Below are positions 2,172-16,463 of a DNA stretch of 50,213 nt, in pieces. The DNA is taken from positions 1 to 50,213 of the forward strand of contig JBDKRC010000277.1 of assembly GCA_039683575.1 (NCBI GenBank), read 5' to 3'. A program made the position numbers and the translations under genes. The notes beneath the pieces were generated by a model. That model did no database searches, was not told the origin of the DNA, and saw nothing but the letters and a program-made list of their open reading frames with translations. The stretch comes from Armatimonadia bacterium. Lineage in GTDB: Bacteria; Armatimonadota; Zipacnadia; Zipacnadales; UBA11051. Within the stretch, counting starts at the first letter, position 1, and each line of letters begins with the position of its first letter.

Positions 2172-3536
2172 ATGTACAGTATTCGTCCGCGCAACCTGTA
2201 TGCACTGGATTGGGCGCTGGAAGATGAGCGCAACGTTCGCCGGCTGGAGCGCTTGGTCGCTGGCCTGAAGCGCCAGATGTCAGAAGTGCAGGTGATTACC
2301 GCCGAACAGTTGCCGCAGGCGATCCGCGACAGCGGCTGGATCGGCGAAGTGCGCCAGGGGGCCTACCAGGATGTCAGCGATCCTGACTTCCTCTTCACGG
2401 CCTTCAAGTGGCTCACCCCCGAGCAGCGCTCGGAAGTAGCCAAGACCGAACTGTTCCAGCAGTGCGTGGACGCGCACGCGTCCTACGGTGACTGCAAACA
2501 ATGGTTCACTGGCGGCCGGATACTGGCCATGCTGGGGGCGGCCCCGTTCTTCCACTACGAGCAGCGCGCCGAATGGAATCGCGCCCATGTGTGCTGGAGC
2601 TTGCACGACCTGCATTCCGCCTGGGGCTGCGCCCACCGCTGCTCATACTGCCAGCGTGGCTCGGTCTATGTGGTTAACCTCAATGTTGAGGAGTTCGTGG
2701 ACAGGGTGGGCGATTTCATCGACCAGACGCCCTGGCAGAAGACCTTCCGCTACGATGTAGAGCAGGACGTCTTTACCATCGAGCCAGAGTATGGCGCTTG
2801 TGAGATGCTGGTACGGGACTTCGCCCAGCGTGACGACCGCTACCTGATCCTCTTCACCAAAAGCGCCAACACCGACTTCCTCCTGCCGCTTGAGCACAAC
2901 GGCCACACGATGATGCTCTGGACGCTCTCCTCCCACACCGTGAGTCGCCGCTATGAGGCCCTGACAGGGACGATGGAAGAGCGCATCGAGGCCGCTCGGC
3001 GCTGCCAGGAGGCCGGGTACACGGTGCGCTTCAAGCTCAAGCCCATCATCCCGATCAAGAACTGGCGAGAAGAGACAACCCAGATGCTGGAGCTTCTGTA
3101 CTCACGGGTGAAGCCGGACAATCTGAGCATGGAAATGGTATTCGTCGACAGTGTCGCCGAGATGAACGACACGATGGGGCGCGATAGCCTCGATCCCGCC
3201 TTCGTTGCAGCCGCTGAGCAGGCGGAGGCGGAGCGGGGAGACTGCTGGGACAAAGAGATTGACGGAGAGAAGCCGTTCCCCTTCGAGGTGAAGGCCGAAC
3301 TCTATCGCTACGTCATCTCAGAATCCCGGCGCCTTAGCCCTGACACTCCGATAACGCTCTGTGCTGAGAACATGCGGATGTGGGAAGAACTCGGGGATCT
3401 TCTCGACGGGAAGCCCTGGAACTACCCCTGCAACTGTGGCCCACACTGCACTCCGCAGCGGCAGCGCATCACGGAAGTGCAAGGCCCGGATGCCGAGCGT
3501 ATCTGCCGCGCGGTCGCCAATGGTGGCGTCCGCTGA
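2172..3536 (+). CDS. Radical SAM protein, spore photoproduct lyase (SplB)-like family
   Basis: CAHRCSYC (CxxxCxxC), FTKSAN and WTLS...YE...TMEERIEAA...GY.V...PII segments typical of SPL-like enzymes. Extra C-terminal CNCGPHC. GGGAG RBS. Confidence 0.8.
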   Translation: MYSIRPRNLYALDWALEDERNVRRLERLVAGLKRQMSEVQVITAEQLPQAIRDSGWIGEVRQGAYQDVSDPDFLFTAFKWLTPEQRSEVAKTELFQQCVDAHASYGDCKQWFTGGRILAMLGAAPFFHYEQRAEWNRAHVCWSLHDLHSAWGCAHRCSYCQRGSVYVVNLNVEEFVDRVGDFIDQTPWQKTFRYDVEQDVFTIEPEYGACEMLVRDFAQRDDRYLILFTKSANTDFLLPLEHNGHTMMLWTLSSHTVSRRYEALTGTMEERIEAARRCQEAGYTVRFKLKPIIPIKNWREETTQMLELLYSRVKPDNLSMEMVFVDSVAEMNDTMGRDSLDPAFVAAAEQAEAERGDCWDKEIDGEKPFPFEVKAELYRYVISESRRLSPDTPITLCAENMRMWEELGDLLDGKPWNYPCNCGPHCTPQRQRITEVQGPDAERICRAVANGGVR

Positions 3537-3597
3537 CTCACGACCCCGCAAGACTGTGCTCTGACGCTACAACTCCTCTGCAAGGGTGGGTTGCCGG

Positions 3598-6444
3598 ATG
3601 AAGCAGTTCCTGCTGAGCATTGTGGCCGTAACACTGGCGGTATCGGTTGCATTCGCACAGACTGACATCCTCACCACGCCCGCGCCGAGTACTGGCAAAG
3701 TGGCCTCTTTCGAGACCGAGGCCGATAGCCAGTTCGTGCTGCAGGGGGGCGTCAGCGGCACGCGAGTGAAAGAACACGCCACGGATGGAGAGTGGGCCCT
3801 GCGGGTGCTGGCAAAGGGTTCCGACCAGCCCAGTTGGCCCGCACTCTGGCTATACCCCAAGACTGAGCCCAACTGGAGCGCCCGCGAGCTCCTGGTCATG
3901 GATATCTTCCTCGAGACCCCCGACAGCGTTGAGTTCGGCGCTCAGCTTTGCGCTCTGGACCGCAAGGACGCGGTGACGGCGTCGCTGGGACGCCTGCAGC
4001 CCGGCTGGAACAAGGGCATCACGCTGTGCCTGCAGGATTTCGGCTGGGACCTTACCCGCATCGCCAACCTCGCGCTGTATCTGGGCTCCCCGAAGAAGGA
4101 CGTGATCTACACTATCGACAACGTCCGCTGGGAGAGGCTGCCACAGGCTTCCGGGGGCTGGATCAGCGTGAGCGAACTCGGAGCCTCTGGCTCGGTATTC
4201 GAGACCACCGCCAGCGCCACGGCCGGCTCGAACCAGATCACTGTGGCCGACGCCGGTGACCTGCAGGTCGGTCAGCAGATCACAGTCTCAAAGTGCAACA
4301 TCCGGTACCTGCGGCCGACGCAGTATGGCCCCGGCGAACCCTACTCGACTTCGAAGCCCCTTGGTGACGCTCTGGAGATGCGTGGCTATGACGGCAGCGG
4401 AGGCAGTTGGCTGGCCTACATCCTCGAGATAGATGGCACCGACCCGGTCACCTTCCGCTGGAAGGGAGACCTCGCCAAGCAGTGGGACGGCACGAGAGTG
4501 CCCGTCACCTACGACTGGCAGAAGCTCAGCGGCGGAACCGAGGTGCGCTTCAAGCAGCAGGAGTGGAAGAAGGGGCAGATGGTGACCTTCTCGGCCCGCG
4601 ATCAGTTGGTCAGCACTATCGAGAAGATCGATGGCAAAGTCATCACCCTGGCTGACGCTGCTAACCGCACAGTCACCGACGCGGTCGTCCGACACACCGA
4701 TCGCGAAGCAGTGCAGAAGGCGATCAACCTCGCTCTCAAGCGCAAGTGCAACGTCTTCTTCCCATCGGGGCATTACCGGATACCCGGCGGCCTGCGGGTC
4801 ATGAACGCCTCAGCCATACGGCTTGAAGGCGCTGACGCCGCCACCACCGTCCTCGACATCAGCGACGGGGAAGGTTCCTGTTTCGGCCTCCAGCGGGGGA
4901 CGGAAGTGACGATTCGCAACTTCACGATGGTTGGCCATACCGGGTTGGCAGAGGCTCCTCTGTCCTTCACCACCTCGACGGGCTATGGATACTGGCCCAA
5001 CGGCCTCAAAGGCTGCAATGCGGTGGGCATGTCAGGTACGGAACGGGTTCTGATCGAAAACGTGCATGTCAGCCGCATGGCCAATGAGGCCTTCTATGCC
5101 CAGGGGCCCGCGCGCGCTGGCAAGACAGAGCCCCCACAGTATCAGAAGTCACTCACGTACCTGCGCTGCAGCGTCACAGACTGCGCCGCCAATGCCTTCA
5201 ACAACAACGACCGGGCGGAAAACACCAGCATCCTGTACTGCCGCGTGGATGGCGCCGGTTGGCATGCTGCCGAGATGCCGGCACGCTTCCTGCGGGTCAT
5301 CGGCTCATATTTCCGCAACACTGGCGCGATTACCGTCGGTGATATGAGCCATCGCTACGAGGACCTGAACGAACTGGGCTGCGGGCAGGCCTTCATCTGC
5401 GACAACGTCTTCGAGGGTATCGGTCGCTGCGGCGGCATCGCCGTCAACCACGGGTCCTCGCAGGTAGTCATCTCCGGCAACCTCTTCATCAACTTCAATG
5501 GCAACGCGATAACGGTCTCCAGCGCCACCGTGCGCCCCACGTTGCCGTGGTTCAAGCCAGATGCGCCGCTGGAGTGGGGCTCCTACCCTTCGCGGAGCGC
5601 CGTCATCACCGACAACATCATCGACATGACCTATCCCGCCCAAAACGGAGCATACCGTGTCGGGATCAACGTTGATGCCTCCGAAGTCACCATAGCCAAC
5701 AACCAAGTCTATGTCCGCGGAGAGGCTGATCCACGGGTGACGGGGATCAGGCTGCGTGAGCCGGCGCTGCATCTGACCGTCCATGACAATCTCGTGCGTA
5801 ACTGTGGCGCGGGGCTGCTGACAGGCCGGGCCACCTCACGCGTCACGCAGGTAGTTGACGCCACAACCTTCATGGAAGCTTCTCTGCCGCTGGAGTGGCG
5901 CTATACGCACCAGTACCAGGGCTGGAACGTTCTCTGGACCAGCGGTGGCAAGGTAGTCGGCACCTCGATCATAGACAGCTATGACCCGGCCACGCTGCTA
6001 TTCAAGCTCAAGACGCCGCGTGAGATGAAGGTGGGGGATACCTTTGAGATATGCCCGCCGGGGGCGGCCAACTGGAGCATCCACAGCAACACCATCACCG
6101 GTTGCACCAATCCGGTCGTGCTCGACAACTATGGCAGCGTGACGAACTGCTTCTCTGACAACCAGATCAGCCGCGGTGGGGCCATCGGCGTCAAGCAGGC
6201 AATAAGCGTCCAGGGACTATACGAACTCAGGGGGAACCAGATCACGGGGTTTGACGAAGCCGGCTGCGCGGCTCTGCTGCTGGGGCCCGACAGGCAGGGG
6301 AAGCCACTAACGAATCGTTACCGCAACAACTTCATAAGCGGCTGTGCCGTAGGAGTAGCCGAAAGCGTGCCGGGCTTGTGGGACGCCTCAACACGCGAGG
6401 GCAATGTGTTCACCGACTGCGGAGGCAAGGCGCCCCAGGACTAG
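3598..6444 (+). CDS. Secreted right-handed beta-helix (pectin lyase-like) protein with N-terminal CBM-like domain
   Basis: Signal peptide MKQFLLSIVAVTLAVSVAFA, N-terminal beta-sandwich ending YTIDNVRW, DREAVQKAI...VFFPSGHYRI beta-helix cap, and many I.(D/G/N)N repeats. ATG 3598 chosen over the ORF-track start. Confidence 0.75.
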   Translation: MKQFLLSIVAVTLAVSVAFAQTDILTTPAPSTGKVASFETEADSQFVLQGGVSGTRVKEHATDGEWALRVLAKGSDQPSWPALWLYPKTEPNWSARELLVMDIFLETPDSVEFGAQLCALDRKDAVTASLGRLQPGWNKGITLCLQDFGWDLTRIANLALYLGSPKKDVIYTIDNVRWERLPQASGGWISVSELGASGSVFETTASATAGSNQITVADAGDLQVGQQITVSKCNIRYLRPTQYGPGEPYSTSKPLGDALEMRGYDGSGGSWLAYILEIDGTDPVTFRWKGDLAKQWDGTRVPVTYDWQKLSGGTEVRFKQQEWKKGQMVTFSARDQLVSTIEKIDGKVITLADAANRTVTDAVVRHTDREAVQKAINLALKRKCNVFFPSGHYRIPGGLRVMNASAIRLEGADAATTVLDISDGEGSCFGLQRGTEVTIRNFTMVGHTGLAEAPLSFTTSTGYGYWPNGLKGCNAVGMSGTERVLIENVHVSRMANEAFYAQGPARAGKTEPPQYQKSLTYLRCSVTDCAANAFNNNDRAENTSILYCRVDGAGWHAAEMPARFLRVIGSYFRNTGAITVGDMSHRYEDLNELGCGQAFICDNVFEGIGRCGGIAVNHGSSQVVISGNLFINFNGNAITVSSATVRPTLPWFKPDAPLEWGSYPSRSAVITDNIIDMTYPAQNGAYRVGINVDASEVTIANNQVYVRGEADPRVTGIRLREPALHLTVHDNLVRNCGAGLLTGRATSRVTQVVDATTFMEASLPLEWRYTHQYQGWNVLWTSGGKVVGTSIIDSYDPATLLFKLKTPREMKVGDTFEICPPGAANWSIHSNTITGCTNPVVLDNYGSVTNCFSDNQISRGGAIGVKQAISVQGLYELRGNQITGFDEAGCAALLLGPDRQGKPLTNRYRNNFISGCAVGVAESVPGLWDASTREGNVFTDCGGKAPQD

Positions 6445-7628
6445 GCGCTCGCGACGCGCACGTTGGTGACTGTGACGTCCCGGACGAACTCCGGTCCGGG
6501 TACGATGGTGATCGCCTCTCCGGCGATGTCGTGGCGGATAACATTGCTGATGATCGAGTCGCACAGCGACCCGCCGATCATGATCGTGTGCTCGGAGCGG
6601 CTGATCACGTTGTTTACGATGAACCGGCTGGTGCTCCCTAAGGGAGCCACGCCACCCCCGTAGTGGTGATCCCCGATCTTGACCGCTGCCCGGCAACGCA
6701 TGTCCGACGGCGAGGTATCAATCAGCCCGTCGAGCAAGATGTCGTGCATCTGCACGCCGGGTGTGTTCAGGAACCTGACAATGTGGTGGCCGCCCCGGCA
6801 ATAGCCCCTGACGTTCCTGATGATGACGTGCCGGATGGCGTCCAGCCCCTCGCCCCGGTCCTGAGTGCAGCTGATCATCGTGGACTTCAGCCCGCCGGCA
6901 GGAGCGCCGTTGAGGTTCGGGATAGCCGTGAGAGCAATGAGATCGTCGCCGCTGTAGCCGCTGATATTCTCGATCAGGATGTCGTGACAGCCGAGCCGCA
7001 GGTCAACCCCATCCTGGTTCAGGATCGTCTGTTTCTCGCCGTCAATCGCCTTTGTTCCGCTGGAAGCGAAGTCAAGGTCGCGCACAACTCCATGTGCACA
7101 ACGCTCCAGCGAGATCCCCCAGCAGTGTGAGTCCTTCATCGAGAGGTTCTTGAGGCTGAAGCCCTCGACGAACGCCATCAGAATCCCGATATTCCGCCAA
7201 TCCCCGGTTTGACTCTGCCCCTCAACCCCGGCATCCGTGCCATACGTGTTCTCACCGAGTGTCTTGCCCCCGTCACCGGTGGCACGCGGGCGGTCTGCAC
7301 CCTCGAGCAGCACGTTGCCGACTCCGTAGATGCGGATGCCGCTCAGTGGCTCTATCTCGGTAATGCCCGCCCCGCAGTTGGCGCTGCGGATCATGTTGTC
7401 GCGACACTGGTCCGAGAGCTTGAGATGGCAGTTGTCGAGTTCCAGAACGGTGTCACCCGGCACAAGGATCGCCGAATCGAGCAGCCAGAGGTCTCGTTCG
7501 CCTCCGGAGCAGTTGTGACGGGGGATCACAATGCGCTTGCCAGTGCCCGCGGCGGCCTGCAGCGCCTGGTTTATGCGCTCCACATCAGAGCCCTGGAAGT
7601 CGTTGGGGGTCAGGAACTGGGCGTCCAA
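6441..7628 (-). CDS. GH28-like (polygalacturonase-type) beta-helix glycoside hydrolase, no signal peptide
   Basis: DVERINQAL cap, and NQDG / SGDD / GGHH / AVKIG resembling the GH28 NTD, DD, GHG and RIK motifs. TTG start at 7628 follows an AGGAGA RBS just after the activase stop. Confidence 0.7.
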   Translation of the reverse strand: MDAQFLTPNDFQGSDVERINQALQAAAGTGKRIVIPRHNCSGGERDLWLLDSAILVPGDTVLELDNCHLKLSDQCRDNMIRSANCGAGITEIEPLSGIRIYGVGNVLLEGADRPRATGDGGKTLGENTYGTDAGVEGQSQTGDWRNIGILMAFVEGFSLKNLSMKDSHCWGISLERCAHGVVRDLDFASSGTKAIDGEKQTILNQDGVDLRLGCHDILIENISGYSGDDLIALTAIPNLNGAPAGGLKSTMISCTQDRGEGLDAIRHVIIRNVRGYCRGGHHIVRFLNTPGVQMHDILLDGLIDTSPSDMRCRAAVKIGDHHYGGGVAPLGSTSRFIVNNVISRSEHTIMIGGSLCDSIISNVIRHDIAGEAITIVPGPEFVRDVTVTNVRVASA

Positions 7629-7647
7629 GGTAAGTCTCCTTGTACTC

Positions 7648-8538
7648 TTATGTGACATGAAGACCGAAGCCTTGCAGGATGGCCTTCGCGTTGTCGATTG
7701 TGGCAGCATCCGGCGGCTGGACATCGTCCATGGGATACGGCCGACCGATTGTCTCGTACTTCGACCGCGCCAGATGGTACGGCAGCAGCCTAACCCCAAC
7801 AATGTTGTTGAGATCGTTCAGGAGCTGCCCAATGGCGGCCATGCTGTCTGTGTCCGCATTGAAGCCCGGGATGGTCGGTATGCGGATCTCAATCGGTACG
7901 CCGCAACCCGACAAGCGCTTGAGGTTGTCGAGTATTTTGCCGTTCGAACTGCCCGTGTGTGCCCGGTGTACCGCCTCGTCCATGTGCTTTAGGTCGTACA
8001 GAAACAGGTCAGTATGGGGCAGAACAGTCTCGAAGCACTCCCATCCCACCGCCCCTGAGGTGTCCATGGCGCAGTGTATGCCGCTCTGTCGCAGAATGCC
8101 GAAGACCTCGGCGCAAAACGGCGCTTGCAGGAGCGGCTCCCCCCCCGAGATGGTGCAGCCGCCGCCGGACTTGGTATAGAAGGTCGCATCCTCCAGCACT
8201 GCTGCCGCTACCTCCTCGGCGGTCATCTCGCTGCCATAGTGCCGAAGCGCCCCCGGCAGGCAAGCCTCAACGCATTTGCCGCAAGCCTTACAGAGGCCGC
8301 GGTTGAGCCTGTGGCTGCCCCCGTCGAAGGTATGTGCCCCAACGGGACAAGCTTCGGCGCACTTCCCGCATCCGACGCATTTACGCTTCACGAACCCGAT
8401 CTCGGGCCTAGGTGATATGCTCTCGGGGTTGTGACACCACCGGCATTGCAGGGCGCAGCCCTTGAGGAAAGCCGTCGTCCTAATGCCTGGGCCGTCGTGG
8501 ACGGACAGACGTGTGAGCTCCAGCAGACGCCCTGTCAT
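7648..8538 (-). CDS. Glycyl-radical enzyme activating enzyme (radical SAM, with ferredoxin insert)
   Basis: HDGPGIRT..FLKGCALQCRWCHNPES, two CxxCxxCxxxC motifs, GGGCTISGGEPLLQ, DTSG, YDLK, LLPYH. Start overlaps the GRE stop (alternative GTG at 8541). Confidence 0.95.
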   Translation of the reverse strand: MTGRLLELTRLSVHDGPGIRTTAFLKGCALQCRWCHNPESISPRPEIGFVKRKCVGCGKCAEACPVGAHTFDGGSHRLNRGLCKACGKCVEACLPGALRHYGSEMTAEEVAAAVLEDATFYTKSGGGCTISGGEPLLQAPFCAEVFGILRQSGIHCAMDTSGAVGWECFETVLPHTDLFLYDLKHMDEAVHRAHTGSSNGKILDNLKRLSGCGVPIEIRIPTIPGFNADTDSMAAIGQLLNDLNNIVGVRLLPYHLARSKYETIGRPYPMDDVQPPDAATIDNAKAILQGFGLHVT

Positions 8539-10583
8539 CACGCCACCTCGGCCTTGGTGATGAACATTTGCTGCTCTTCTGGAGCGAGATCCACGAAGCG
8601 TACATTCCAGCCGCAGACCCTAACCTGAAGGTTGGCGTACTTCTCCGGAGTGCACTGCGCCTCACGCAGCAGGTCCGCATCGAAGACGTTGAACTGGATG
8701 GCCATCCCGCCCTGCGCAAAGTGGCTGCGGATGATCGAGCAGATCGTCGGGATGCCTGCAGAGCCCGTGACGACGCTGGGATGCAGCATGATGTCCAGCA
8801 CGGTCCCATTGGGGAACTGGGCCAGGTCCAGCGTGGTGACGGAGTTGATAAGCGAGGTAACGCCCTTGCTGTCCATCCCAATCGTCGCCCCGGTGTTGAT
8901 GGTCAAGGGTTGCCCGGCCAAGCGTCCATCCGGCAAGGCCCCCGTGTTCCTGCCAAAAGCCTTCGCTGTGTCGGTGATGCCATACAATGCTGCCTGGAAG
9001 ACCCCACCACGGGCGTTCGGCTCGTGGTTGAGGCGCTTGCCCAGGAAGTTGGTGATCTCTACAGCCAGATCATCCACGCGGGCATCGTTGTTGCCCCACT
9101 TCGGGACGCGATGTTGCGCAATCAGTCGCAGGCCCTCGTAGCCTTCCCAGTTGGCTGCCAGAGCAGCCCTGAGGTCTGCGAGGGTGCAGCGCTGCTCCTC
9201 GAAGACAATTTGCCTGACAGCCGCCAGCGAATCTGCCGCGTTGGCGAGCCCCACACAACAGCAGCCACTGGTGTTGTACTTGGCCCCAGCCTGCGATACA
9301 TCAAGGCCCCGTTCAATGCACGAATCCATGGTGCCCGAGAGCAGCGGGGACGGGCTCACCTGCGGCCACAGGCGCTCGTCCCGCCGCACCCTATCAATGG
9401 CGCGGGCGATTTGTGCGTCGAGGGTTCCGATATACGCCGCCATCAAGTCCTCGAAGGAGCCATAGTCTCCCGAAGCCAGGGCTATCTCAACTGCCTTCGC
9501 CAGATTCAGCCCGGCCGCTCCGGAGCAGTTAAGCTCCTTACCCATCACGGCGGGCTCATAGCAGCCGATCAGTATATAGTCCTTAGCGTCCTCCAACGTC
9601 TTCCCATTCTGGCGCAGCATCTCAACCTGCGCAGTGTCGTTGACCGTTACAATCCCGGTGCAGCCGGCCAGGATGCAGCCGGCGACTTCGTCCATGAAGT
9701 CCTGTGGCGTCTGCTCCCCCAGCCGCACATGCAGCTTGGGGTCCACAATCTGCATCTCGCGGTAGACCTCAAAAGCGAGGTATGACAGCTCGTTGACCTC
9801 GGGCCCGAAGAGAAACGGCTTTCCATAGAGCTTGCCCCGGGTCCTGGCAAAGAACTTCACCCAGAAGTACTTCAGAAGCTCTTTGGCATGGTCGCGCGTG
9901 AGCCGTCCGGCCTTCAGGTCAGCGACATAGAAGTTGCCGTAGAGTTGGTCAAATCTGCCCATCGAGCGGACACAGTAGCCGCCTTCCATCTCCTGCAACT
10001 CGTGGTAGAGGTACGCCAGTTGCAGTGCCTCGTGGAAGGTCTGCGGCGGGCGCTGTGCCAGGGCGGCCAGCGCCGCATTGCCCTGCGCCTCGGCGAGACG
10101 CTTGGCGAGGATGATGGCGCCGTCATAGACCATCGCCACGGCCTGATAGAAGTCGCCAGAGCGCCCTGCAGCGCGATCTCGTAGGCCCGTGAAGCCGTGC
10201 TGGAGCAGGCTCCTCCAGTCCGGGCAGATGTGGCCCACGTCCAGTTGCCCGGTCCAAGCCCCCAAAATGGCCTGTGGCTCGTCCTTGAATTCTCGGCCCT
10301 CTTCCTCACGCCGCCATTCCTCGCGCAGCGTGATGAGCAGGTTGTGATGCTCCAGCTTGTCGGCGAAGTAGTCATCCGGCTCGACGGCAAGGCGTGCCTT
10401 GGAGCAAAGCAGATGAAACAGCCAGGCCCGGGTCAGGATACGCGGCTCGTCCGGATTCTCAGCGCGGTGCTCATCTAGCTCGGCGACAAGCTCGTCTTTC
10501 GAGAGCCCGGAGGCGGGATCGAACTGCACGTCCAGATACTGCCGCTCTAACTGCTTGCGAACCTCATCGAATGGCCTAAGCAT
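8538..10583 (-). CDS. Glycyl radical enzyme (PFL superfamily, eliminase-like), 681 aa
   Basis: SMGRFDQ, Cys loop IGCYEP, PKWGN, GALPDGR.AG.PL, QFNV...LREAQ..PEKY.NLQVRVCGW glycyl loop. ATG 10583 has a GGAGG RBS. Confidence 0.93.
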   Translation of the reverse strand: MLRPFDEVRKQLERQYLDVQFDPASGLSKDELVAELDEHRAENPDEPRILTRAWLFHLLCSKARLAVEPDDYFADKLEHHNLLITLREEWRREEEGREFKDEPQAILGAWTGQLDVGHICPDWRSLLQHGFTGLRDRAAGRSGDFYQAVAMVYDGAIILAKRLAEAQGNAALAALAQRPPQTFHEALQLAYLYHELQEMEGGYCVRSMGRFDQLYGNFYVADLKAGRLTRDHAKELLKYFWVKFFARTRGKLYGKPFLFGPEVNELSYLAFEVYREMQIVDPKLHVRLGEQTPQDFMDEVAGCILAGCTGIVTVNDTAQVEMLRQNGKTLEDAKDYILIGCYEPAVMGKELNCSGAAGLNLAKAVEIALASGDYGSFEDLMAAYIGTLDAQIARAIDRVRRDERLWPQVSPSPLLSGTMDSCIERGLDVSQAGAKYNTSGCCCVGLANAADSLAAVRQIVFEEQRCTLADLRAALAANWEGYEGLRLIAQHRVPKWGNNDARVDDLAVEITNFLGKRLNHEPNARGGVFQAALYGITDTAKAFGRNTGALPDGRLAGQPLTINTGATIGMDSKGVTSLINSVTTLDLAQFPNGTVLDIMLHPSVVTGSAGIPTICSIIRSHFAQGGMAIQFNVFDADLLREAQCTPEKYANLQVRVCGWNVRFVDLAPEEQQMFITKAEVA

Positions 10584-11580
10584 GGTACGCCTCCGCGATT
10601 TCGTCCATCCTGCGGTCAAACTGCTCATCCACTACCTGGAACTCCGGGTTGTCCCAGTAGAATTGTATCGTGCGCTTGATCCCCTCGGCAAAACGCGTCG
10701 TGCAGACGAACTCAGGGACCGCCGCGCGGATCTTGCTGTTGTCATAGACGCTGTTGCTGGCGAACGAGATGAGCTTTTCGCCGAAATCCCCGCCCAGTTC
10801 GAACCCGAGGTCGTGCGCAGGCACGTGGCAGAGGTTCGGTTTGGTGCCCAGCGCATCCCCAACCAGCTCAGCCACCCGGTTCCAGGTCAGGAATTCATCC
10901 GAGGTGATATGAAAAGCCTCGCCGAACGCCGCCGGGTTACCACAGAGCCCCACGAAGGCCTTGGCGAAGTCTTCAGTGTGGGTGACGGTGCACAGCGCGT
11001 TGCCGTCATCATGCATGAGCAACGGCTTGCCCTGCAGGATGCGGTTGGCGATAGTCCAGGAGTAAGTCTGGTGGGGTGGCCCGACTGGATGCAGGATGCG
11101 GAGCTTGTTGTACGTGAAGGCCGGCCGCACGATGGTATAGTCCAGACCGCTGCTTTCGTGCTCCGCCTGTAAGCGTCGCTCGCACAGTATCTTGTTGCGG
11201 CCATACGACCACACCGTATTGCCGACCATGGTCTTGTCTTCAGTGATGATCTCGCACTGCGACCTCGTCCGGTAGACCGCCCCCGAGGAGATGAAGATAT
11301 ACTGGCCGCAGCGGTCCCGAAACAGCCCCAGGTTGCTCTCCAGTTGGTCCACTCCATAGCACAGGAAGTCCGCCACAACGTCGAAAGTCATGCCCTCGAG
11401 CTTCTGACGCAGCTCTTCCGGCTTGCCGACGTCACCCTGAATGCAGCGCGCTCCCTCGGGCACGAACATGGGGCGGTTGCCGCGGTTGAGCAGGTATAGC
11501 TCAATATCGCTATTCTGCGCGGCCAACGCGGCGATGTCGCCGCCAATACAGCCGGTTCCGCCCAGCAGCAGTACTCTCAT
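10576..11580 (-). CDS. NAD-dependent epimerase/dehydratase (extended/atypical SDR)
   Basis: GGTGCIG Rossmann motif, FISSGAVY, YGRNK (YxxxK), TIVRP..TY. The stop overlaps the GRE start. Confidence 0.9.
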   Translation of the reverse strand: MRVLLLGGTGCIGGDIAALAAQNSDIELYLLNRGNRPMFVPEGARCIQGDVGKPEELRQKLEGMTFDVVADFLCYGVDQLESNLGLFRDRCGQYIFISSGAVYRTRSQCEIITEDKTMVGNTVWSYGRNKILCERRLQAEHESSGLDYTIVRPAFTYNKLRILHPVGPPHQTYSWTIANRILQGKPLLMHDDGNALCTVTHTEDFAKAFVGLCGNPAAFGEAFHITSDEFLTWNRVAELVGDALGTKPNLCHVPAHDLGFELGGDFGEKLISFASNSVYDNSKIRAAVPEFVCTTRFAEGIKRTIQFYWDNPEFQVVDEQFDRRMDEIAEAYHA

Positions 11581-11582
11581 GG

Positions 11583-12587
11583 TCACTTCTCCCACAACAC
11601 AGGTTCGACATGCCCGCTCTCGATGGAGCGGAAGATCGCGTCAGTGATGATCTCGGTCCTGACGGCGCTTTCCAGCGCACACACCGGCTCTCTACCCGTC
11701 AGCAGGGCCTCAACATAGTCCTGAACCATGGGCAGATGGCAGTTCGGTGCCGTATGCGCCTCGATCTGCTGTGTACCGGCCGGGGTGGACTTGATGACCG
11801 GCCCGTTGCCGTGTGGCGGCCACTCATGCCAAGAAATGCGTCCCTCGGAGCCAAATAGCTCCAGCTCATGCCGGGTCCCCGGGGAAGTGCAGTTGAAGAT
11901 GATGGTGAAGATCTGGCCACCCGGGAACAACAGGGCCACCGTGGCGATCTCCTCCACGTCATTCATGACCGCTTTGTTCAGGACGCTCGCCTGCGCCATG
12001 ACGCCGGAGGGCATCCCAAAGAAGTTCTGGGCGATGTCTATCAGGTAGAAGCCCAGTTCCTTGATACGGCTGCAGCCAAGCTCCTGGCGGATGGGGCTGT
12101 TGCCGGGGTTGTAGTAGGGGGTGGAGTAGAGCGCCCAGCCGCCTGTCAGCTTCCCGATCTCGCCCTGTTTCAGCATGGCCTCGGTGATCTTGTACTGCTC
12201 GGACAGCCGCCGGTAGTTCGAGCAGCTTGTCACGCGGTCAGACCGACGGGCGGCCTCCAGAAGACGCAGGCACTCCGCGCCGTTGAGCCCCAGCGGTTTC
12301 TCGCAAAGCAGGTGCTTGCCAGCCTCGAGAGCGGCCAGACTCAGCTCAATGTGAGTGCTCTGCGGTGTTGCGATATAGACGGCATCGGCTCCGCTCTGCG
12401 CCAGCGCCATGGCATAGTCCGTGTAGACCTTCCCCCCACCGAGGCGCCCGGCCAGTTCGGTTGCGCGCTCCTGGCTGAGATCGCAAACAGCGATCAGCTC
12501 CGAGTTGTCTGTCTCAACGAGGGCGGGTCCCGCGCGCCTGGACGCGATGTCTCCGGCCCCGATCAGTAGCCACTTGACCTTAGTCAT
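11583..12587 (-). CDS. Gfo/Idh/MocA family oxidoreductase
   Basis: IGAGDIA, DAVYIATP..TH, GKHLLCEKP, ELFGSEG. Confidence 0.92.
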   Translation of the reverse strand: MTKVKWLLIGAGDIASRRAGPALVETDNSELIAVCDLSQERATELAGRLGGGKVYTDYAMALAQSGADAVYIATPQSTHIELSLAALEAGKHLLCEKPLGLNGAECLRLLEAARRSDRVTSCSNYRRLSEQYKITEAMLKQGEIGKLTGGWALYSTPYYNPGNSPIRQELGCSRIKELGFYLIDIAQNFFGMPSGVMAQASVLNKAVMNDVEEIATVALLFPGGQIFTIIFNCTSPGTRHELELFGSEGRISWHEWPPHGNGPVIKSTPAGTQQIEAHTAPNCHLPMVQDYVEALLTGREPVCALESAVRTEIITDAIFRSIESGHVEPVLWEK

Positions 12588-12689
12588 GTTACCCCTACGT
12601 AGTCTGTCTCGTCGTCATGCTGTGCTCGTTTCGCCAGCCCCAACATCGGTGCGGTAGACTTCAACGCCGTTCGCCAAAGGCCCTTCGAG

Positions 12690-12714
12690 ATATCCCGGGA
12701 TATTCCGGGTTATT
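12690..12714. promoter_or_regulatory. Putative operator: perfect 14-bp palindrome overlapping a 10-bp tandem repeat
   Basis: ATATCCCGGGATAT (12690-12703), with CCGGGATATT/CCGGGTTATT at 12695-12714, in the divergent intergenic region. Confidence 0.45.
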
Positions 12715-12728
12715 ACCGCGCCCTTGGG

Positions 12729-12757
12729 AGGACAATGGGACCCGGTAGGAGTATACT
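12729..12757 (+). promoter_or_regulatory. Putative sigma70-type promoter for the sugar catabolism operon
   Basis: AGGACA-17 bp-TATACT, about 70 bp upstream of the AGGAGG RBS and start at 12829. Confidence 0.5.
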
Positions 12758-12828
12758 AATCGCCGGTCCCTGGTGCCGCTGCCCCTGTCAGTCACCAGTT
12801 GAACCGCTCGTGATGTGTACAGGAGGTC

Positions 12829-14277
12829 GTGATGGCAGTCTCCGTGAAGCTTGGTTTTGTGCCGTCCTATCGGCGCTGGAACGATTGGACGGAGAAGATG
12901 CGTACCGATAGCCTGCGGGAGCTTGCGAAGCTCGCCGGGGTGCAGATTGTTGCTCCGCAGATCGCGCCGCCGGAGGCCGCACCCGATTCCATCACTGGGG
13001 CGACGGCGTATGGCGCTATCCACACCCTTGATGAGGCCGAGGCCGTGGCAGACTACTTCGCTCGGGAGCGGGTAGACGGCCTGATCCTCTGCCCTCTGGA
13101 CTTTGGCGATGAGCGTTCGGCCACCAAGATCGCGGAGAAGCTTCGGGTGCCGGTGCTGCTGTACGCCACCAAGGAGCCGCCTGGGGCCGCTGGCCCCGGC
13201 ATGTTGCGGCTGTCCGACTCCTATTGCGGCAACCTCTCCATGGCCGCCGGCCTGCATCGCCGCAAACTGGCATTCCGCTTCGCCGGGGTCTTCTTCCCTG
13301 ATGAAGCAGGCCTGCGCGCGGAGTTGGAGGCCTTCGCCAGCGCTGTCGCCGTGGTCAAGGGCCTGCAGAGCGCTCGCATCGGCCAGGTCGGCGTGCGGCC
13401 ACAGACCTTTGAGACTGTCGCGTATGACGAGATCGCCATGGCCCGCAAGTTCGGCCAGAACGTGATCTATAGCAACCTGATTGACATTCTCACCGAAGCT
13501 CGCGCCCTGGCGGATGACGATTCCGCTGTCCAGGACATCCTGGCCGACATCAGGCGTAAGGTACCCACTATCACGGTGGCGGATGATTACCAGCTCAAGG
13601 CAGCGAAGCTGGAAGCGGCGCTGGCGGCTTTCTGGCAGCGCAACGGCCTATCGGCCCTCACCATGCAGTGCTGGCACAGCATTCAGCTTGAGTATGGCAT
13701 CTCGCTGTGCGCGCTGTTCGGCCGCCTGACCGGCCGGCACCTGCTCACCGCCTGCGAGGCCGACGTCATGGGCGCTCTTTCGATGCTGAGCCAGTACCAG
13801 GCGTCCTTCGGGCAAGACCTGCCGCACTTCATCGACTGGACGATCCAGCACCGCGAGAACCCCAACCGCCTGCTGGCGTGGCACTGCGGCAACGCCCCCA
13901 CCTGCCTCGCACGCGAGGCTGGGGACGTAGCCCTGCGCTCCCGCAAGGACATGGCCGGAACCGAGCCGGTACCCACCGGCGACCCGCAGGCGGGCCTGTA
14001 CCAGTTCCCGGTCAAGCCCGGCCCGGTCACCTTCTGCCGTCTGGCCGAGTATGACGGCGACTGGAAGATGCTGATTGCCCGTGGGGAGGTCGTGCCTTCC
14101 GAGGAGACCCTCGCCGGCACGTGGGCCTGGGTTGAGGTCAGCGACCATCAACGTCTCTACCGCACTCTCGTGGAGCAGGGCTTTGTGCATCACGCCAGCA
14201 TGATCCACGGCGATCAGGTAGCGGCTCTCTCGCGCGCGTGCCAGTTCCTCGACATTGCGCCAACCATTGTGGAGTAG
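12829..14277 (+). CDS. L-fucose/L-arabinose isomerase family protein
   Basis: DFGDE, DSYCG, QCW, ACEAD, FIDW, WHCG, GPVTFCRL, GFVHH metal-site motifs. AGGAGG RBS (ATG 12832 is an alternative start). Confidence 0.88.
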   Translation: MMAVSVKLGFVPSYRRWNDWTEKMRTDSLRELAKLAGVQIVAPQIAPPEAAPDSITGATAYGAIHTLDEAEAVADYFARERVDGLILCPLDFGDERSATKIAEKLRVPVLLYATKEPPGAAGPGMLRLSDSYCGNLSMAAGLHRRKLAFRFAGVFFPDEAGLRAELEAFASAVAVVKGLQSARIGQVGVRPQTFETVAYDEIAMARKFGQNVIYSNLIDILTEARALADDDSAVQDILADIRRKVPTITVADDYQLKAAKLEAALAAFWQRNGLSALTMQCWHSIQLEYGISLCALFGRLTGRHLLTACEADVMGALSMLSQYQASFGQDLPHFIDWTIQHRENPNRLLAWHCGNAPTCLAREAGDVALRSRKDMAGTEPVPTGDPQAGLYQFPVKPGPVTFCRLAEYDGDWKMLIARGEVVPSEETLAGTWAWVEVSDHQRLYRTLVEQGFVHHASMIHGDQVAALSRACQFLDIAPTIVE

Positions 14278-14287
14278 TGATTTGACG

Positions 14288-15226
14288 ATGACGAAACTAG
14301 ATATAGTCGGGCTGGGCCTGTCCACGCTCGACGTGCTGATGCGACTGGGCGACATGCCCACCTGGGACAGCCCGCGGGGGATTACTGACTTCGGCCTCGA
14401 TGGCGGCGGCCCCGTAGGCACTGCCTGCGTGGCCGCGGCGCGATTGGGAGCCCGTGTCGGCTACGTTGGCACCGTTGGCAACGACCTCGTCGCAGAGCTC
14501 AAGACGAAATTCCTGGCAGACTACGGTGTTGACCTCAGCCGCCTCGTGCCCACAGACGGGCCAGAGACGCAGGTGGTGGGGGTCTATGTGCACGAAGAGA
14601 CAGGGGAGCGGATGTTCTCTGTGCTTCAGGGCCTGCGCACAACCGTCCTGCCCGTGGAGGCTCTGGACCGGTCGTACGTCACCTCGGCTCAATTCCTGCA
14701 CCTGGATGGCTTCTACCACGATTCTGCCGTGCAGGCCGCCCAGTGGGTGCACGAGGCCGGTGGGCGCGTTTGCATCGACTGCAGGCGCACCGATGACCTT
14801 GAGGTTCCGGCGCAGACCATCGAACTGCTCTCCTATGTCGACATCCTGGTGTGCGGCTCGGGCTTCTGCCGGGCCTTGACCGGGATGGAGGACATCTGGG
14901 CCGCTGGCCCGGCCGCGAGGGCCTTCGGGCCAGACGTTGTCGTGGAGACACAGGGGGAGACCGGCAGCTTCAGCTTCAGCGGCGACCGACAGTTCCATAC
15001 CCCGGCCTTCGACGTCGAGGTGCTCGACACCACCGGGGCGGGCGATGTCTTCCATGGCGCCTACCTCGTAGCCCTGCTGCACGGATGGGACCTGCCCCTT
15101 GCGGCACAGTTCGCGTCCGCCGCCTCGGCTCTGAAGTGCTCGAAGCTCGGCGGAAGGCGCGGCATTCCCGAATTCGACGAGACAATGCAGTTCCTGCGGC
15201 ACCGGGGGATTCAGATCCCCACGTAG
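14288..15226 (+). CDS. PfkB/ribokinase family carbohydrate kinase
   Basis: GGGPVGTACVAAARLG...GTVGND (PfkB signature 1) and DTTGAGDVFHGA (signature 2). Confidence 0.93.
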   Translation: MTKLDIVGLGLSTLDVLMRLGDMPTWDSPRGITDFGLDGGGPVGTACVAAARLGARVGYVGTVGNDLVAELKTKFLADYGVDLSRLVPTDGPETQVVGVYVHEETGERMFSVLQGLRTTVLPVEALDRSYVTSAQFLHLDGFYHDSAVQAAQWVHEAGGRVCIDCRRTDDLEVPAQTIELLSYVDILVCGSGFCRALTGMEDIWAAGPAARAFGPDVVVETQGETGSFSFSGDRQFHTPAFDVEVLDTTGAGDVFHGAYLVALLHGWDLPLAAQFASAASALKCSKLGGRRGIPEFDETMQFLRHRGIQIPT

Positions 15227-15309
15227 AGCTCAGTTGACGCGTGGTAGGCATGCTCCGCATGCCGGACCCAGTATCCGCAGTAAACCATGTACACCGAGGC
15301 GACAGGATC

Positions 15310-16440
15310 ATGAAGATCACAGATGTGAAGGCCCTTCCAGTCAAAGGACGCCACTGGCCACGTTTCCCCATGGTGTTCATTGAAGTCTACACCGATGAAG
15401 GTGTCGTCGGGGTAGGTGAGGCGCTAGCGTTCCAGGCTACCGGAGTGCTGGACTCAGTGGCACAGATCGGCGAGTGGCTGCGCGACGAGAACCCGCTGCA
15501 GATCGAGCGCCTGTGGGAGCGTTGCTTCCGGCGGGGAGCCGCCATGGCGGCGCTCAGTGGCATTGAAATCGCCCTGTGGGACATCGTCGGCCAGGTAGCC
15601 GGGTTGCCGGTCTACCAGCTTCTCGGCGGGCAGTGTCACGATCGGGTGCGGGTCTATGCCGATGGGTTCTTCCGAGGTGCCGATCCGACCCCGGAAGCCT
15701 ATGGCGCGAAAGCCGAAGAAGCCGTTGCAAAGGGCTTCACAGCGCTGAAGCTGGACATTGACGATTTCCTGTACCTCGGCGAGCGCCCCGCCCTGATCCG
15801 GTGTCACGGCGCCGACCTGGGCAGGCATATCACCAACGCTGAGATCCGGCAGGTAGAGGCCAGCGTTGCCACCATCCGCCAGCGCCTGGGCCCTGATGTA
15901 GACCTCGCCCTCGATTGCCACTGGGCCTTCGACGTCCCCTCCGGCCTGCGTCTGGGGCGGGCGCTTGAGCCTCACAACCTGATGTGGATTGAGGACCCCA
16001 CGCCCTCGGCCAGCGCTCCGGCGCTGGCGAAGCTCGCGAGCGAGTTGCCGATGCCGCTGTGCCTCGGTGAGGCCCTGGCTACCCGCTTTGGGTTCCGCGA
16101 GATCCTGGAGCGCCAGGCTGCCAGCATCATCATGCCTGACGTGGCCAGCAGTGGCGGTATCCTCGAGACCAAGAAGATCGCCGCGCTCGCAGACACCTAC
16201 TACGTCCCGATGGCCCCGCACGACATGGTAGGCCCCATCGCCACCGCCGCCACGCTGCAGCTTTGCTTCTCGATCCCGAACCTGCTGGTTGTGGAGCACC
16301 AGATGACCGACGTGGCGTGGCGCCACGAGCTTACCGACCAGCCGCTTCTGGTAGAGGACGGCTACTTCGACCTTCCGACCCGTCCCGGGCTCGGAATGGC
16401 CCTCAACCACGACGCCGTGCGCAAGTACCGCGCTGACTAG
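15310..16440 (+). CDS. Mandelate racemase/enolase superfamily acid-sugar dehydratase (galactonate dehydratase-like)
   Basis: MKITDV, TDEGVVGVGE, SGIEIALWDI.G...GLPVYQLLGG, KLD, DCH, WIEDP, GE, MPD, APH, PTRPGLG. Confidence 0.9.
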   Translation: MKITDVKALPVKGRHWPRFPMVFIEVYTDEGVVGVGEALAFQATGVLDSVAQIGEWLRDENPLQIERLWERCFRRGAAMAALSGIEIALWDIVGQVAGLPVYQLLGGQCHDRVRVYADGFFRGADPTPEAYGAKAEEAVAKGFTALKLDIDDFLYLGERPALIRCHGADLGRHITNAEIRQVEASVATIRQRLGPDVDLALDCHWAFDVPSGLRLGRALEPHNLMWIEDPTPSASAPALAKLASELPMPLCLGEALATRFGFREILERQAASIIMPDVASSGGILETKKIAALADTYYVPMAPHDMVGPIATAATLQLCFSIPNLLVVEHQMTDVAWRHELTDQPLLVEDGYFDLPTRPGLGMALNHDAVRKYRAD

Positions 16441-16463
16441 GCGCTTGAACGAAGGGATAACCC

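Follow-up and report, generated by a model that had tools for sequence, protein, structure and literature searches.

Which reaction would be carried out by a short glycyl radical enzyme (GRE) whose gene is flanked by those of two sugar oxidoreductases and of its own activase? GREs give anaerobes access to chemistry for which oxygen or B12 would otherwise be required, and newly assigned GRE functions (choline, hydroxyproline, isethionate, anhydroglucitol) have each opened a piece of anaerobic metabolism. The locus that raises the question lies in a 50,213-nucleotide stretch of DNA from an Armatimonadia bacterium (hereafter the window), where overlapping genes encode, in this order, a Gfo/Idh/MocA-family protein (Gfo), an extended SDR, the GRE, a three-cluster activase and a beta-helix, glycosidase-like protein (Table 1). 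Between the Gfo stop and the SDR start the overlap is 13 nt, between the GRE stop and the activase start it is 4 nt, and from an in-frame ATG at 7658 the beta-helix gene would share 11 nt with the end of the activase gene. On the other side of the divergent intergenic region, an AGGAGG box precedes the ATG at 12833 of a fucose-isomerase-like gene on the + strand.

The GRE gene is a stop-free ORF whose translation we call P0001. An alternative ATG at 10628 would give a protein of 696 aa, but the overlap with the SDR gene upstream would then be 52 nt, as against 8 nt from 10583, which makes 10583 the likelier start. Pfam matches to the PFL-like domain (PF02901, E = 2e-100) and to Gly_radical (PF01228, E = 7.5e-21) show that this is no chance ORF. 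The 681-aa GRE that a first-pass annotation had described, with IGCYEP and RVCGW loops and a shortened KPFLFGPEVNELSY segment, has all of these elements at the computed coordinates.

Table 1. Features of the GRE operon and its surroundings in the window.
Feature	Position	Strand	Basis
Divergent intergenic region, 245 bp, separating the GRE operon from a sugar-acid operon on the + strand	12588..12832	.	Gfo ATG at 12587 (-)
Gfo/Idh/MocA-family NAD(P) sugar oxidoreductase, first operon gene	11583..12587	-	Pfam GFO_IDH_MocA 7.8e-24 and C-terminal domains
Extended SDR, epimerase/dehydratase fold	10576..11595	-	Pfam Epimerase 6.1e-16
GRE, GCYE/RVCGWN clade, 681 aa	8538..10583	-	Pfam, AF2 model, Foldseek
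Codon of His118, proposed general acid	10230..10232	-	Alignment to glycerol dehydratase His164
Shortened beta3 region KPFLFGPEVNELSY, residues 255-268	9780..9821	-	Alignment
Cys loop IGCYEP, residues 339-344, with Cys341 and Glu343 of CXE	9552..9569	-	Alignment to IGCVEP
Glycyl radical loop RVCGW, residues 655-659, predicted radical site Gly658	8607..8621	-	Pfam Gly_radical covers 568-664
GRE-activating radical SAM enzyme with two-cluster ferredoxin insert	7648..8541	-	TIGR02494, Cys motifs
Beta-helix, weakly GH28-like protein, probably fifth operon gene	6441..7658	-	Start = Met49 of long ORF

A dedicated, ferredoxin-containing activase had also been proposed, and the adjoining gene bears this out. 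Its product scores 323.3 bits against TIGR02494 (cut-off 174.35) and carries three cluster motifs, C29x3C33x2C36 and, in the ferredoxin part, C55x2C58x2C61x3C65 and C84x2C87x2C90x3C94; against the PflA-type model TIGR02493 it reaches 188 bits, below the cut-off of 232. An activase gene lies directly downstream of the GRE in 18 of the 24 core loci with enough flank, and is missing there in six.

The AF2 model of the GRE (pLDDT 92.5, pTM 0.92) has the barrel fold of about 30 solved eliminases, isomerases and X-succinate synthases (Foldseek TMq 0.81-0.88), to which its identity is merely 19-27%. Glycerol, propanediol and hydroxyproline dehydratases, CutC, PflD and YbiW all match with TMq of 0.84-0.88, the best hit being glycerol dehydratase (1r8w, E = 4.7e-43, TMq 0.85, 27% identity). 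With both Pfam domains, this fold, the Gly and Cys loops and a cognate activase, sequence and model place the protein in the PFL-like division of the GRE superfamily; the radical itself is predicted. No NCBIfam equivalog cut-off was reached by the GRE, and all scores were far under: the equivalogs for HypD, CutC, HpfG, HpsG and the indoleacetate and hydroxyphenylacetate decarboxylases gave 181-283 bits against cut-offs of 1000-1150 (HpfG 283 vs. 1000, HypD 279 vs. 1100, CutC 247 vs. 1050). HpfG, HypD and CutC share the fold, the Cys and Glu of the Cys loop (CXE) and the activase type at 23-26% identity. The best sequence match among solved structures is Archaeoglobus fulgidus PFL2 (2f3o, E = 1.6e-76), which has a GCVE-type CXE loop and, in its RVAGW Gly loop, the same Trp. 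It differs in its length of 776 aa, in aligning only from query residue 177 onward (26% identity by Foldseek) and in having Asp after the Cys loop, and the function of PFL2 is itself unsettled (2026 review, section 7).

Among the 149 best matches from a set of representatives clustered at 50% identity, 117 carry GCYE (median 725 aa), and 102 have both GCYE and R[VIL]CGW. The GCYE sequences form one group with a support of 99 in a FastTree phylogeny, with PflD, YbiW, HpfG-type enzymes and PflB outside it. We define this grouping here as the GCYE/RVCGWN short-GRE clade; it is recognised by its Cys loop (GCYE), its Gly loop (R[VL]CGWN), an xVR[ST]xG motif in beta2 and several deletions in loops, and P0001 has GCYE, R[VIL]xGW, the beta2 Arg-Ser/Thr pair and the deletions after residues 68 and 249. 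The low equivalog scores, the low identities and the clade support together uphold the first-pass view of an uncharacterised GRE outside the characterised clusters: the protein belongs to a large uncharacterised clade, a distinct branch of a known superfamily. A literature search found no paper on the GCYE clade, and a 2026 review describes whole GRE clades as still without experimental validation.

Is the small size of the protein a property of the family? Among the 120 best homologues listed (60-94% identity), nearly all are 680-699 aa long, and this, together with the mapped deletions, establishes that the shortness is real and conserved. Compared with E. coli PflD, E. coli YbiW and a canonical PFL2-type GRE, residues are missing after positions 68 (37-39 aa), 103 (6), 139 (5-14), 171 (18), 249 (11), 260 (7-10) and 372 (2-19). 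Relative to PflD, YbiW and L065, the KPFLFGPEVNELSY beta3 region is preceded by a loss of 11 residues and followed by one of 7-10, and within this region K255, F257 and G260 are invariant across 57 family sequences. The contrast first drawn with eliminases of about 790 aa or longer was too sharp, since some CXE-type GREs are shorter; E. coli PflD, at 765 aa, is also shorter than usual GREs.

All characterised GRE eliminases and isomerases keep CXE, whose Glu bonds the substrate hydroxyl (2026 review). In an HMMER alignment IGCYEP pairs with IGCVEP of glycerol dehydratase, so that Cys341 and Glu343 correspond to Cys433 and Glu435; both are invariant in 57/57 family sequences, and Tyr342 is at least 90% conserved. 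RVCGW fits what we take to be the usual glycyl-loop pattern, RVxG[FWY], with R655, G658 and W659 again invariant in 57/57 and C657 at least 90% conserved. To call these loops non-canonical, as had been done, was an overstatement: GCYEP and RVCGW are markers of the clade and no departure in mechanism. His118 pairs with His164 of glycerol dehydratase (DVGHICPDW against GVGHVSVDY in the HMMER alignment to 1r8w), the residue that protonates the leaving hydroxyl in that enzyme (2026 review, section 5.6); it is invariant in 57/57 family sequences and occurs in PflD and YbiW, not in PflB. After the Cys loop, Ser354-Gly355 stands where glycerol dehydratase and PflD have His-Asp and YbiW, a sugar-phosphate enzyme, has Thr-Gly. 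As read from alignments, the replacement of His-Asp by Ser-Gly may point to a larger, sugar-sized pocket.

What, then, could the enzyme do? The reading we tentatively prefer, at a little short of an even chance, is that the enzyme uses CXE-type radical chemistry to cleave a C-O bond in a neutral substrate derived from a sugar, with redox steps by the Gfo and SDR. The fold, the full set of catalytic motifs, the activase, the operon, the clade and the carbohydrate setting are established here, whereas the type of reaction, the substrate and the sequence of the redox steps are inferred. The neighbouring three-cluster radical SAM activase would take a hydrogen from Gly658, and the radical would be handed on to Cys341, whose thiyl radical would abstract a carbinol hydrogen from a substrate that is neutral and of sugar size (candidates being a monosaccharide, an anhydro- or deoxy-sugar, a cyclitol or an alditol). 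Deprotonation of the hydroxyl by Glu343 would give a ketyl radical, and the adjacent C-O bond would then cleave; our first choice is that a hydroxyl leaves as water, protonated by His118. The resulting alpha-keto radical would regain hydrogen from Cys341 to yield a deoxy-keto sugar, and the Gfo-type and extended-SDR oxidoreductases would move keto and hydroxyl groups around the ring, so as to set up the correct epimer or to reduce the product.

The two partners fit redox chemistry on sugars. The Gfo reached no NCBIfam equivalog (best iolG, 109 bits vs. a cut-off of 355), and its closest solved structures are the glycoside 3-oxidase DgpA (8e-24), a sugar 3-ketoreductase (1.4e-20) and inositol 2-dehydrogenase; these nearest relatives work on sugars, at hydroxyls or ketones of the ring. 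In the SDR, GGTGxI, S103/S104 and Y131xxxK135 are conserved in 14/14 aligned orthologues, and its AF2 model (pLDDT 82.5) best matches nucleotide-sugar 4-epimerases, 4,6-dehydratases and decarboxylases such as ArnA (Foldseek TM 0.61-0.73, 14-22% identity). Among 21 informative core loci, defined by at least 2.1 kb of sequence upstream of the GRE, the order Gfo-SDR-GRE on one strand recurs in 12; the SDR alone is present in one, and both genes are absent beside the GRE in eight. In seven of those eight that were examined, the candidate active-site columns are identical or near-identical in six and differ at several positions in one (L020). The partnership is thus frequent and not obligatory in cis, given eight loci without either gene in which the active-site columns are mostly kept. 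Of the earlier proposal of a sugar or polyol eliminase coupled to Gfo and SDR enzymes, the linkage stands, and the assignment as an eliminase is not separable from that of an isomerase: CXE and the His are common to dehydratases and to the ring-opening PflD and YbiW, so as aligned these residues do not distinguish dehydration from ether cleavage.

An isomerase of the PflD/YbiW type is the alternative that survives best, although we consider it unlikely. Here hydrogen would be abstracted at the carbinol beside the ring oxygen, and the ring C-O ether of a 1,5-anhydro-alditol or similar anhydro-sugar would break to give a 1-deoxy-ketose; the Gfo would be an anhydrofructose reductase, with Gfo and SDR interconverting C2 epimers. 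PflD and YbiW (8id0, 8yjo, 8id7), 1,5-anhydro-hexitol-6-phosphate C-O lyases, likewise act on carbohydrates, among labelled GREs the PflD-equivalog proteins come closest (32-33% identity over residues 117-679), and YbiW resembles P0001 in having Thr-Gly, here Ser-Gly, in place of His-Asp. The Gfo does match 1,5-anhydro-D-fructose reductases (2glx, 1.2e-16; 4koa, 7e-14), but is closer to DgpA and the 3-ketoreductases. Against the PflD-type equivalog NF007437 the GRE scores 280.4 bits with a cut-off of 1109, which six of 37 GREs from loci L050-L079 pass as a control. Both E. coli enzymes lie outside the GCYE clade in the tree and lack the two deletions, after residues 68 and 249, that its members share. 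Genes for a PTS, a sugar phosphatase and an Fsa aldolase, which adjoin pflD and ybiW in E. coli, are absent from the window and the related loci.

The wider context of the GRE is carbohydrate. Core loci with the Gfo-SDR-GRE order carry the labels Armatimonadota, Verrucomicrobiota, Planctomycetota, Lentisphaerota and WS1 (at least five phyla), AraC regulators occur in 16 loci, and the neighbours include GH78, GH29, GH39, GH42, GH2, GH3, GH32, GH130 and melibiase. The glycoside hydrolases vary by locus, so no single glycan or sugar emerges, and transporter, kinase and aldolase genes show no consistent linkage to the GRE. Among seven long proteins of the wider clade that were scanned, six have an N-terminal Pfam domain, five of these being carbohydrate-active (GH78-like, GH2/mannosidase, AXE1 twice, SASA esterase) and the sixth a 3-keto-disaccharide-hydrolase domain. 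Some distant members thus appear to be fused to rhamnosidase, GH2 or esterase domains, fusions known as database predictions alone; a 'longer' search found none. In the window, the beta-helix protein matches Glyco_hydro_28 at 3.4e-4, under the curated cut-off, is probably cytoplasmic, with no signal peptide on inspection of its N-terminus, and has no conserved counterpart beside the GRE in other loci.

Could the GRE then be a radical glycoside lyase? The thiyl would take H2 of a glycoside and the ketyl would expel the C1 aglycone or sugar, leaving a 1,5-anhydro-ketose to be reduced by Gfo and SDR, and the clade would be a radical counterpart of carbohydrate-active enzyme families. This is the same beta-scission that the 2026 review gives for YbiW and PflD, with an exocyclic instead of the ring oxygen leaving. 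The many different glycoside hydrolases beside the GRE, the diversity of a clade with GCYE in so many representatives at 50% clustering, the apparent fusions to GH78-like, GH2-like and esterase domains and the probably cytoplasmic beta-helix protein coupled to the operon would all suit it. Nevertheless we regard it as improbable. Such a reaction would be without precedent, and the fusions are predictions from database entries. Candidate pocket residues of the core family also stay constant while the glycosidase neighbours change, which a common small product fits better than a specific glycoside.

A small-diol dehydratase, acting on glycerol, 1,2-propanediol or ethylene glycol as end products of fucose or rhamnose breakdown, is very unlikely. 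The two best Foldseek matches are glycerol dehydratase (C. butyricum, 1r8w) and 1,2-propanediol dehydratase (R. inulinivorans, 5i2g; E = 3.2e-41), with the same ten-stranded barrel (TMq 0.85-0.86), the conserved Cys, Glu and His and a three-cluster activase, and GH78 and GH29 genes adjoin the GRE in two loci. P0001 is only 24-27% identical to these enzymes and about 105-160 residues shorter, has Tyr for Val inside CXE, Ser-Gly for His-Asp and RVCGWN for RVAGYS, and falls in a separate clade. Val205 and Gly355 occupy the positions of Ser282 and Asp447, which we take to be substrate-binding residues of glycerol dehydratase, so that the His164 equivalent is kept and the other two are replaced. 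The partner enzymes are sugar-ring oxidoreductases rather than those of a diol pathway or microcompartment: a Pfam scan of 43 window ORFs found no shell family, in agreement with the first-pass annotation, and no CoA-acylating aldehyde dehydrogenase or 1,3-propanediol dehydrogenase was found among them.

A pyruvate or 2-ketoacid formate-lyase, as source and cluster names of relatives would have it ('pyruvate formate lyase family protein', 'formate C-acetyltransferase'), is scarcely credible, given 95.3 bits against TIGR01255 (cut-off 994), no Cys-Cys pair (PflB Cys418 aligns to Gly340, followed by Cys341), Arg and Ser in PflB at positions 118 and 343, and an activase of the three-cluster rather than the PflA type. 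For the clade, the labels 'pyruvate formate-lyase' and 'formate C-acetyltransferase' are almost certainly wrong.

One of the largest uncharacterised GRE clades seen here is represented in the window by an operon that is both clean and complete, and the clade brings clear sequence markers, a confident structural model, defined partners and, in phyla that have been little studied, a link to the breakdown of polysaccharides. A broader and more doubtful idea is that the GCYE clade as a whole is a radical counterpart of carbohydrate-active enzymes, consisting of cytoplasmic GREs for oxygen-free cleavage of sugar C-O bonds with subclades tuned to different sugars; these would perform deoxygenation, ether or even glycosidic cleavage, some of them joined in one protein with the glycosidase or esterase that supplies their substrate. 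On that view Gfo-SDR-GRE-activase would be a new anaerobic sugar-deoxygenation pathway common to Armatimonadota and the Planctomycetota-Verrucomicrobiota-Lentisphaerota group. Should the substrate be a sugar, radical C-O cleavage would extend well past the two E. coli anhydro-sugar enzymes, and could explain the fermentation of sugars that have no known anaerobic route in these bacteria.

The 681-residue glycyl radical enzyme (GRE) of the window, our query, matched the PFL-like (E = 2e-100) and Gly_radical (E = 7.5e-21) Pfam families, and the open reading frame (ORF) is therefore a real GRE. A start at 10628 would give 696 aa but would run 52 nt into the upstream gene, against 8 nt for a start at 10583, and the latter was therefore kept. 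The landmarks named in the first-pass annotation, IGCYEP, RVCGW and KPFLFGPEVNELSY, were all found in the translation. Its ferredoxin-containing activase was confirmed by the TIGR02494 match together with the cluster motifs CX3CX2C and two CX2CX2CX3C, and its statement that microcompartment genes are lacking agrees with a Pfam scan of 43 window ORFs, which gave no match to shell families. Consecutive minus-strand genes of the operon all overlap, GRE and activase by 4 nt. The query is thus predicted, almost with certainty, to be a functional GRE with its own activase.

Features of the GRE operon and its surroundings (window coordinates)
Feature	Position	Strand	Residues	Remarks
GRE ORF	8538-10583	-		stop-free translation, 681 aa
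IGCYEP	9552-9569		339-344	computed from GRE translation
RVCGW	8607-8621		655-659	computed from GRE translation
KPFLFGPEVNELSY	9780-9821		255-268	computed from GRE translation
GRE activase	7648-8541	-		directly downstream of GRE; TIGR02494 323 bits, cut-off 174
Beta-helix, weakly GH28-like protein	probable start ATG 7658	-		11-nt overlap with activase end
Extended short-chain dehydrogenase/reductase (SDR)	10576-11595	-		8-nt overlap with GRE
Gfo/Idh/MocA oxidoreductase (Gfo)	11583-12587	-		13-nt overlap with SDR
Divergent intergenic region	12588-12832			245 bp, between GRE operon and plus-strand cluster

The divergent plus-strand cluster (12833-20912), whose first gene starts at ATG 12833 behind an AGGAGG box, encodes a fucose-isomerase-like protein (141 bits with the SftI model, cut-off 700), a PfkB kinase, a galactonate-dehydratase-like member of the enolase superfamily, an aldehyde dehydrogenase, two Gfo oxidoreductases and a 298-aa protein without a Pfam match, and looks like a sugar or sugar-acid route. 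A 198-aa minus-strand ORF (12661-13257) was taken as spurious because it lacks a family assignment and overlaps the gene for the isomerase-like protein. Elsewhere, the window holds a reductive-dehalogenase/QueG-like Fe-S protein, whose 61.6 bits with TIGR02486 fall short of the cut-off, and after it a 454-aa spore-photoproduct-lyase-like radical SAM protein (1057-3536, plus strand); an M81/MlrC-type metallopeptidase adjoining an ornithine cyclodeaminase/mu-crystallin family protein (24269-26794, minus strand); and a small non-ribosomal peptide synthetase of A-T (588 aa) and C-A-T-TE (1337 aa) proteins, the latter gene followed by a 4'-phosphopantetheinyl transferase (35680-42219, minus strand). 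Three very large plus-strand proteins of 952-1300 aa (3586-6444, 27093-30995 and 31896-35555) resemble carbohydrate-active families only weakly (beta-helix; CBM4_9 with a GH42-like part; GH127-like), which fits a glycan-degrading organism having many unclassified enzymes.

The query lies outside every characterized GRE cluster, as the first-pass annotation had supposed. It reached none of the NCBIfam equivalogs scored (HpfG, PflD type, HypD, CutC, HpsG, indoleacetate and hydroxyphenylacetate decarboxylases, and PFL), with 95-283 bits against cut-offs of 994-1150, and its best model, the broad subfamily TIGR01774, gave 363 bits (cut-off 678). By sequence, the solved structure nearest to the query was A. 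fulgidus PFL2 (E = 1.6e-76), whose own function is undefined, followed by glycerol dehydratase and PflD. In Foldseek, a confident AlphaFold2 model built from a 57-sequence alignment (pLDDT 92.5, pTM 0.92) matched practically every solved GRE eliminase, isomerase and X-succinate synthase (TMq 0.81-0.88), and hydroxyphenylacetate decarboxylase and choline-free CutC less closely (0.73-0.77), at only 19-27% identity to solved GREs. The best Foldseek match was glycerol dehydratase (E = 4.7e-43, 27% identity).

A word-indexed homologue search with the query gave 479 matches, the best 120 of which share 60-94% identity, are nearly all 680-699 aa long and bear generic names only; names in the protein Atlas were likewise just generic. 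Labels among these 120 were Armatimonadota, Planctomycetota, Verrucomicrobia, Lentisphaerae, WS1 and Bacteroidota; the closest relative among the matches listed (94%) is labelled Armatimonadia. An exhaustive search of 50%-identity representatives returned 5803 matches (E up to 1e-3). In the 149 best of these, the query's own representative excluded, GCYE and R[VIL]xGW each occurred in 117, and GCYE together with R[VIL]CGW in 102; GCYE proteins shorter than 800 aa span 652-774 aa (median 725, n = 97). We then built a FastTree phylogeny (181 rows, 729 columns; E. coli PflB as root) from the query, 30 of 49 family loci, 135 of the 149 representatives (at least 640 aa; those over 900 aa trimmed to the last 760 residues) and 15 canonical GREs, NCBIfam-labelled or from E. 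coli. All 133 GCYE rows and nine variants formed a single clade of 142 tips (support 99), with the query's core family as a 20-tip clade (support 100). Outside the 142-tip clade fell E. coli PflD and YbiW, four PflD-equivalog and three HpfG-equivalog proteins, along with another 26 GREs lacking GCYE, 5 of them from loci and 21 from the representatives. These labels derive from NCBIfam cut-offs applied to the 37 GREs of genomic loci L050-L079, six of which passed the PflD-type cut-off and 17 that of HpfG. As this is one quick build with sampling skewed toward the query, its deeper branching order should not be over-read. The Glu of the Cys-X-Glu (CXE) motif is gone from some subclades within the GCYE clade (homologues P0184, P0218, P0232, P0251 and P0240), which have GCWD, GCYN, GCFN or GCNN loops and retain R..GWN, suggesting that the chemistry may be different there.

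According to a June 2026 review (PMC13450708), CXE is kept in all characterized eliminases (glycerol, propanediol, DHPS, hydroxyproline and N-methyl-hydroxyproline dehydratases, CutC, IslA/IseG and HpsG) and in all isomerases (HplG, YbiW, PflD); its Glu bonds the substrate hydroxyl, and His164 of glycerol dehydratase donates a proton to the leaving hydroxyl. The query's C341-Y342-E343 aligns to glycerol dehydratase C433-V-E435, and its DVGH118ICPDW to GVGH164VSVDY. C341, E343, H118, G658 and W659 are invariant in 57/57 family sequences, and Y342 and C657 are at least 90% conserved. The loops had been called non-canonical; because the CXE and His align with glycerol dehydratase and are invariant in the family, GCYEP and RVCGW are instead variants within the canonical pattern, which mark the clade but signal no different mechanism. 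Residues near the pocket, assigned by alignment rather than from model coordinates, do differ: glycerol dehydratase and PflD have His-Asp after the Cys loop where the query has Ser354-Gly355 and YbiW, a sugar-phosphate binder, has Thr-Gly; beta2 carries VRSMG in place of HS[IV]S; and D597 and M599 stand for canonical Asn and Lys. Asp447, Ser282 and Tyr640 of glycerol dehydratase are residues that we take to have roles near the pocket. Arg206 was left out as an anion-binding residue, since strand alternation may orient its side chain off the pocket. Two core-family GREs of 67-72% identity (locus L020, 9874-11931; locus L024, 3290-5329) have GCCEP replacing GCYEP, the extra Cys following the catalytic one, whereas PFL has one before it; both have His at the Gln530 position.

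Compared with PflD, YbiW and one canonical PFL2-type GRE, the query has deletions after residues 68 (37-39 aa), 103 (6), 139 (5-14), 171 (18), 249 (11), 260 (7-10) and 372 (2-19). Those after 68 and 249 are common to distant clade members at loci L037 and L044; those after 171 and 260 were not found in these two.

Scanning GTDB species genomes yielded 79 loci, 27 of them in the core family (at least 59% identity) and 21 of those with at least 2.1 kb of upstream sequence. The proposed coupling to Gfo and SDR held in part: the one-strand order Gfo, SDR, GRE occurred in 12 of these 21, SDR alone in one and neither gene in eight. The 12 are labelled Armatimonadota, Verrucomicrobiota, Planctomycetota, Lentisphaerota/Victivallales and WS1. 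The activase lies directly downstream of the GRE in 18/24 loci with at least 0.9 kb of downstream sequence. Candidate pocket columns are nearly identical with or without adjoining Gfo/SDR, the GCCEP sub-branch excepted, which suggests that the core family shares one function. One 5.69-Mb Victivallales contig carries two core-family paralogues (L012 and L013; 63% and 60% identity), each with an AraC regulator and activase and neither with adjacent Gfo/SDR.

The nearest relatives of the Gfo protein are DgpA glycoside 3-oxidases (8e-24), a sugar 3-ketoreductase, inositol 2-dehydrogenases and 1,5-anhydrofructose reductases. The SDR keeps its Ser/Tyr/Lys catalytic residues in 14/14 orthologues, and its model (pLDDT 82.5) resembles nucleotide-sugar 4-epimerases, 4,6-dehydratases and decarboxylases (TM 0.61-0.73, 14-22% identity). 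From these relatives and this fold, both partners look like enzymes oxidizing or reducing sugar ring positions. Other genes near the GRE include divergent AraC regulators (16 loci), GH130 (six loci, up to three copies), one or a few cases each of GH78, GH29, GH39, GH42, GH2, GH3, GH32 and melibiase-like enzymes, and beta-helix proteins, a sulfatase, an esterase, a gluconolactonase-like protein and an SSF transporter. The window's plus-strand operon was rejected as part of the GRE pathway: its genes are not beside the GRE in core loci, and among such genes an enolase-family one alone turned up near a GRE, at two distant Chloroflexota loci. Chloroflexota loci L043, L044 and L049 belong to a distant subclade (41-42% identity, ~741 aa, RVTGWS) with DHDPS-family aldolase-like, PNPOx-like, alpha/beta hydrolase, GDPD, amidohydrolase and enolase-superfamily neighbours, a different context that is possibly sugar-acid related.

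Seven long proteins of the wider clade align over the full query length at 33-41% identity, and six have an N-terminal Pfam domain. These predicted fusions, known from database predictions, each form one polypeptide of 941-1533 aa whose C-terminal part is the GRE domain. Five of the N-terminal domains are carbohydrate-active: GH78-like six-hairpin (P0155), GH2 with mannosidase Ig domains (P0210), acetyl-xylan esterase AXE1 (P0230, P0252) and SASA esterase (P0228); P0208 has a 3-keto-disaccharide-hydrolase domain. The Pfam scan gave no N-terminal match for P0260, the seventh. P0155 falls in a 32-tip clade containing the query. A search for 'longer' homologues found no fused forms, weak evidence by the nature of that search, and the literature searched gave no description of GRE-glycosidase fusions. 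The 1025-aa ORF of locus L042, whose N-terminus has no Pfam match and shows no relation to the P0228 SASA domain, was not counted because it is probably an over-extended ORF call.

The CXE and His, the widened pocket, the sugar-ring oxidoreductase partners and the glycan-degradation context point to radical C-O cleavage, with a neutral compound of about sugar size as the probable substrate. We tentatively favour dehydration, giving a deoxy-keto sugar, at somewhat less than an even chance. What weakens this C-O cleavage picture most is that the glycosidase neighbours vary and that downstream pathway genes are missing. Ether cleavage as in PflD and YbiW, which also keep CXE and fall outside the GCYE clade, is unlikely. 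Glycosidic cleavage is improbable, and small-diol dehydration very improbable, glycerol dehydratase being the best structural match yet carrying the His-Asp that the query replaces. PFL chemistry, the reading of public labels, is next to negligible, the PFL equivalog cut-off lying far above the query's score.

The text of a Kiritimatiellia synteny preprint contains no mention of glycyl, radical, formate lyase, Gfo or GH130, and the full-text literature searched and the June 2026 review describe no characterized member of the clade. The review notes that whole GRE clades are still experimentally untested (PMC13450708). What is new is a large and separate clade of GREs whose operon module is conserved; for the query, dehydration of a sugar-sized substrate would be the favoured reaction.
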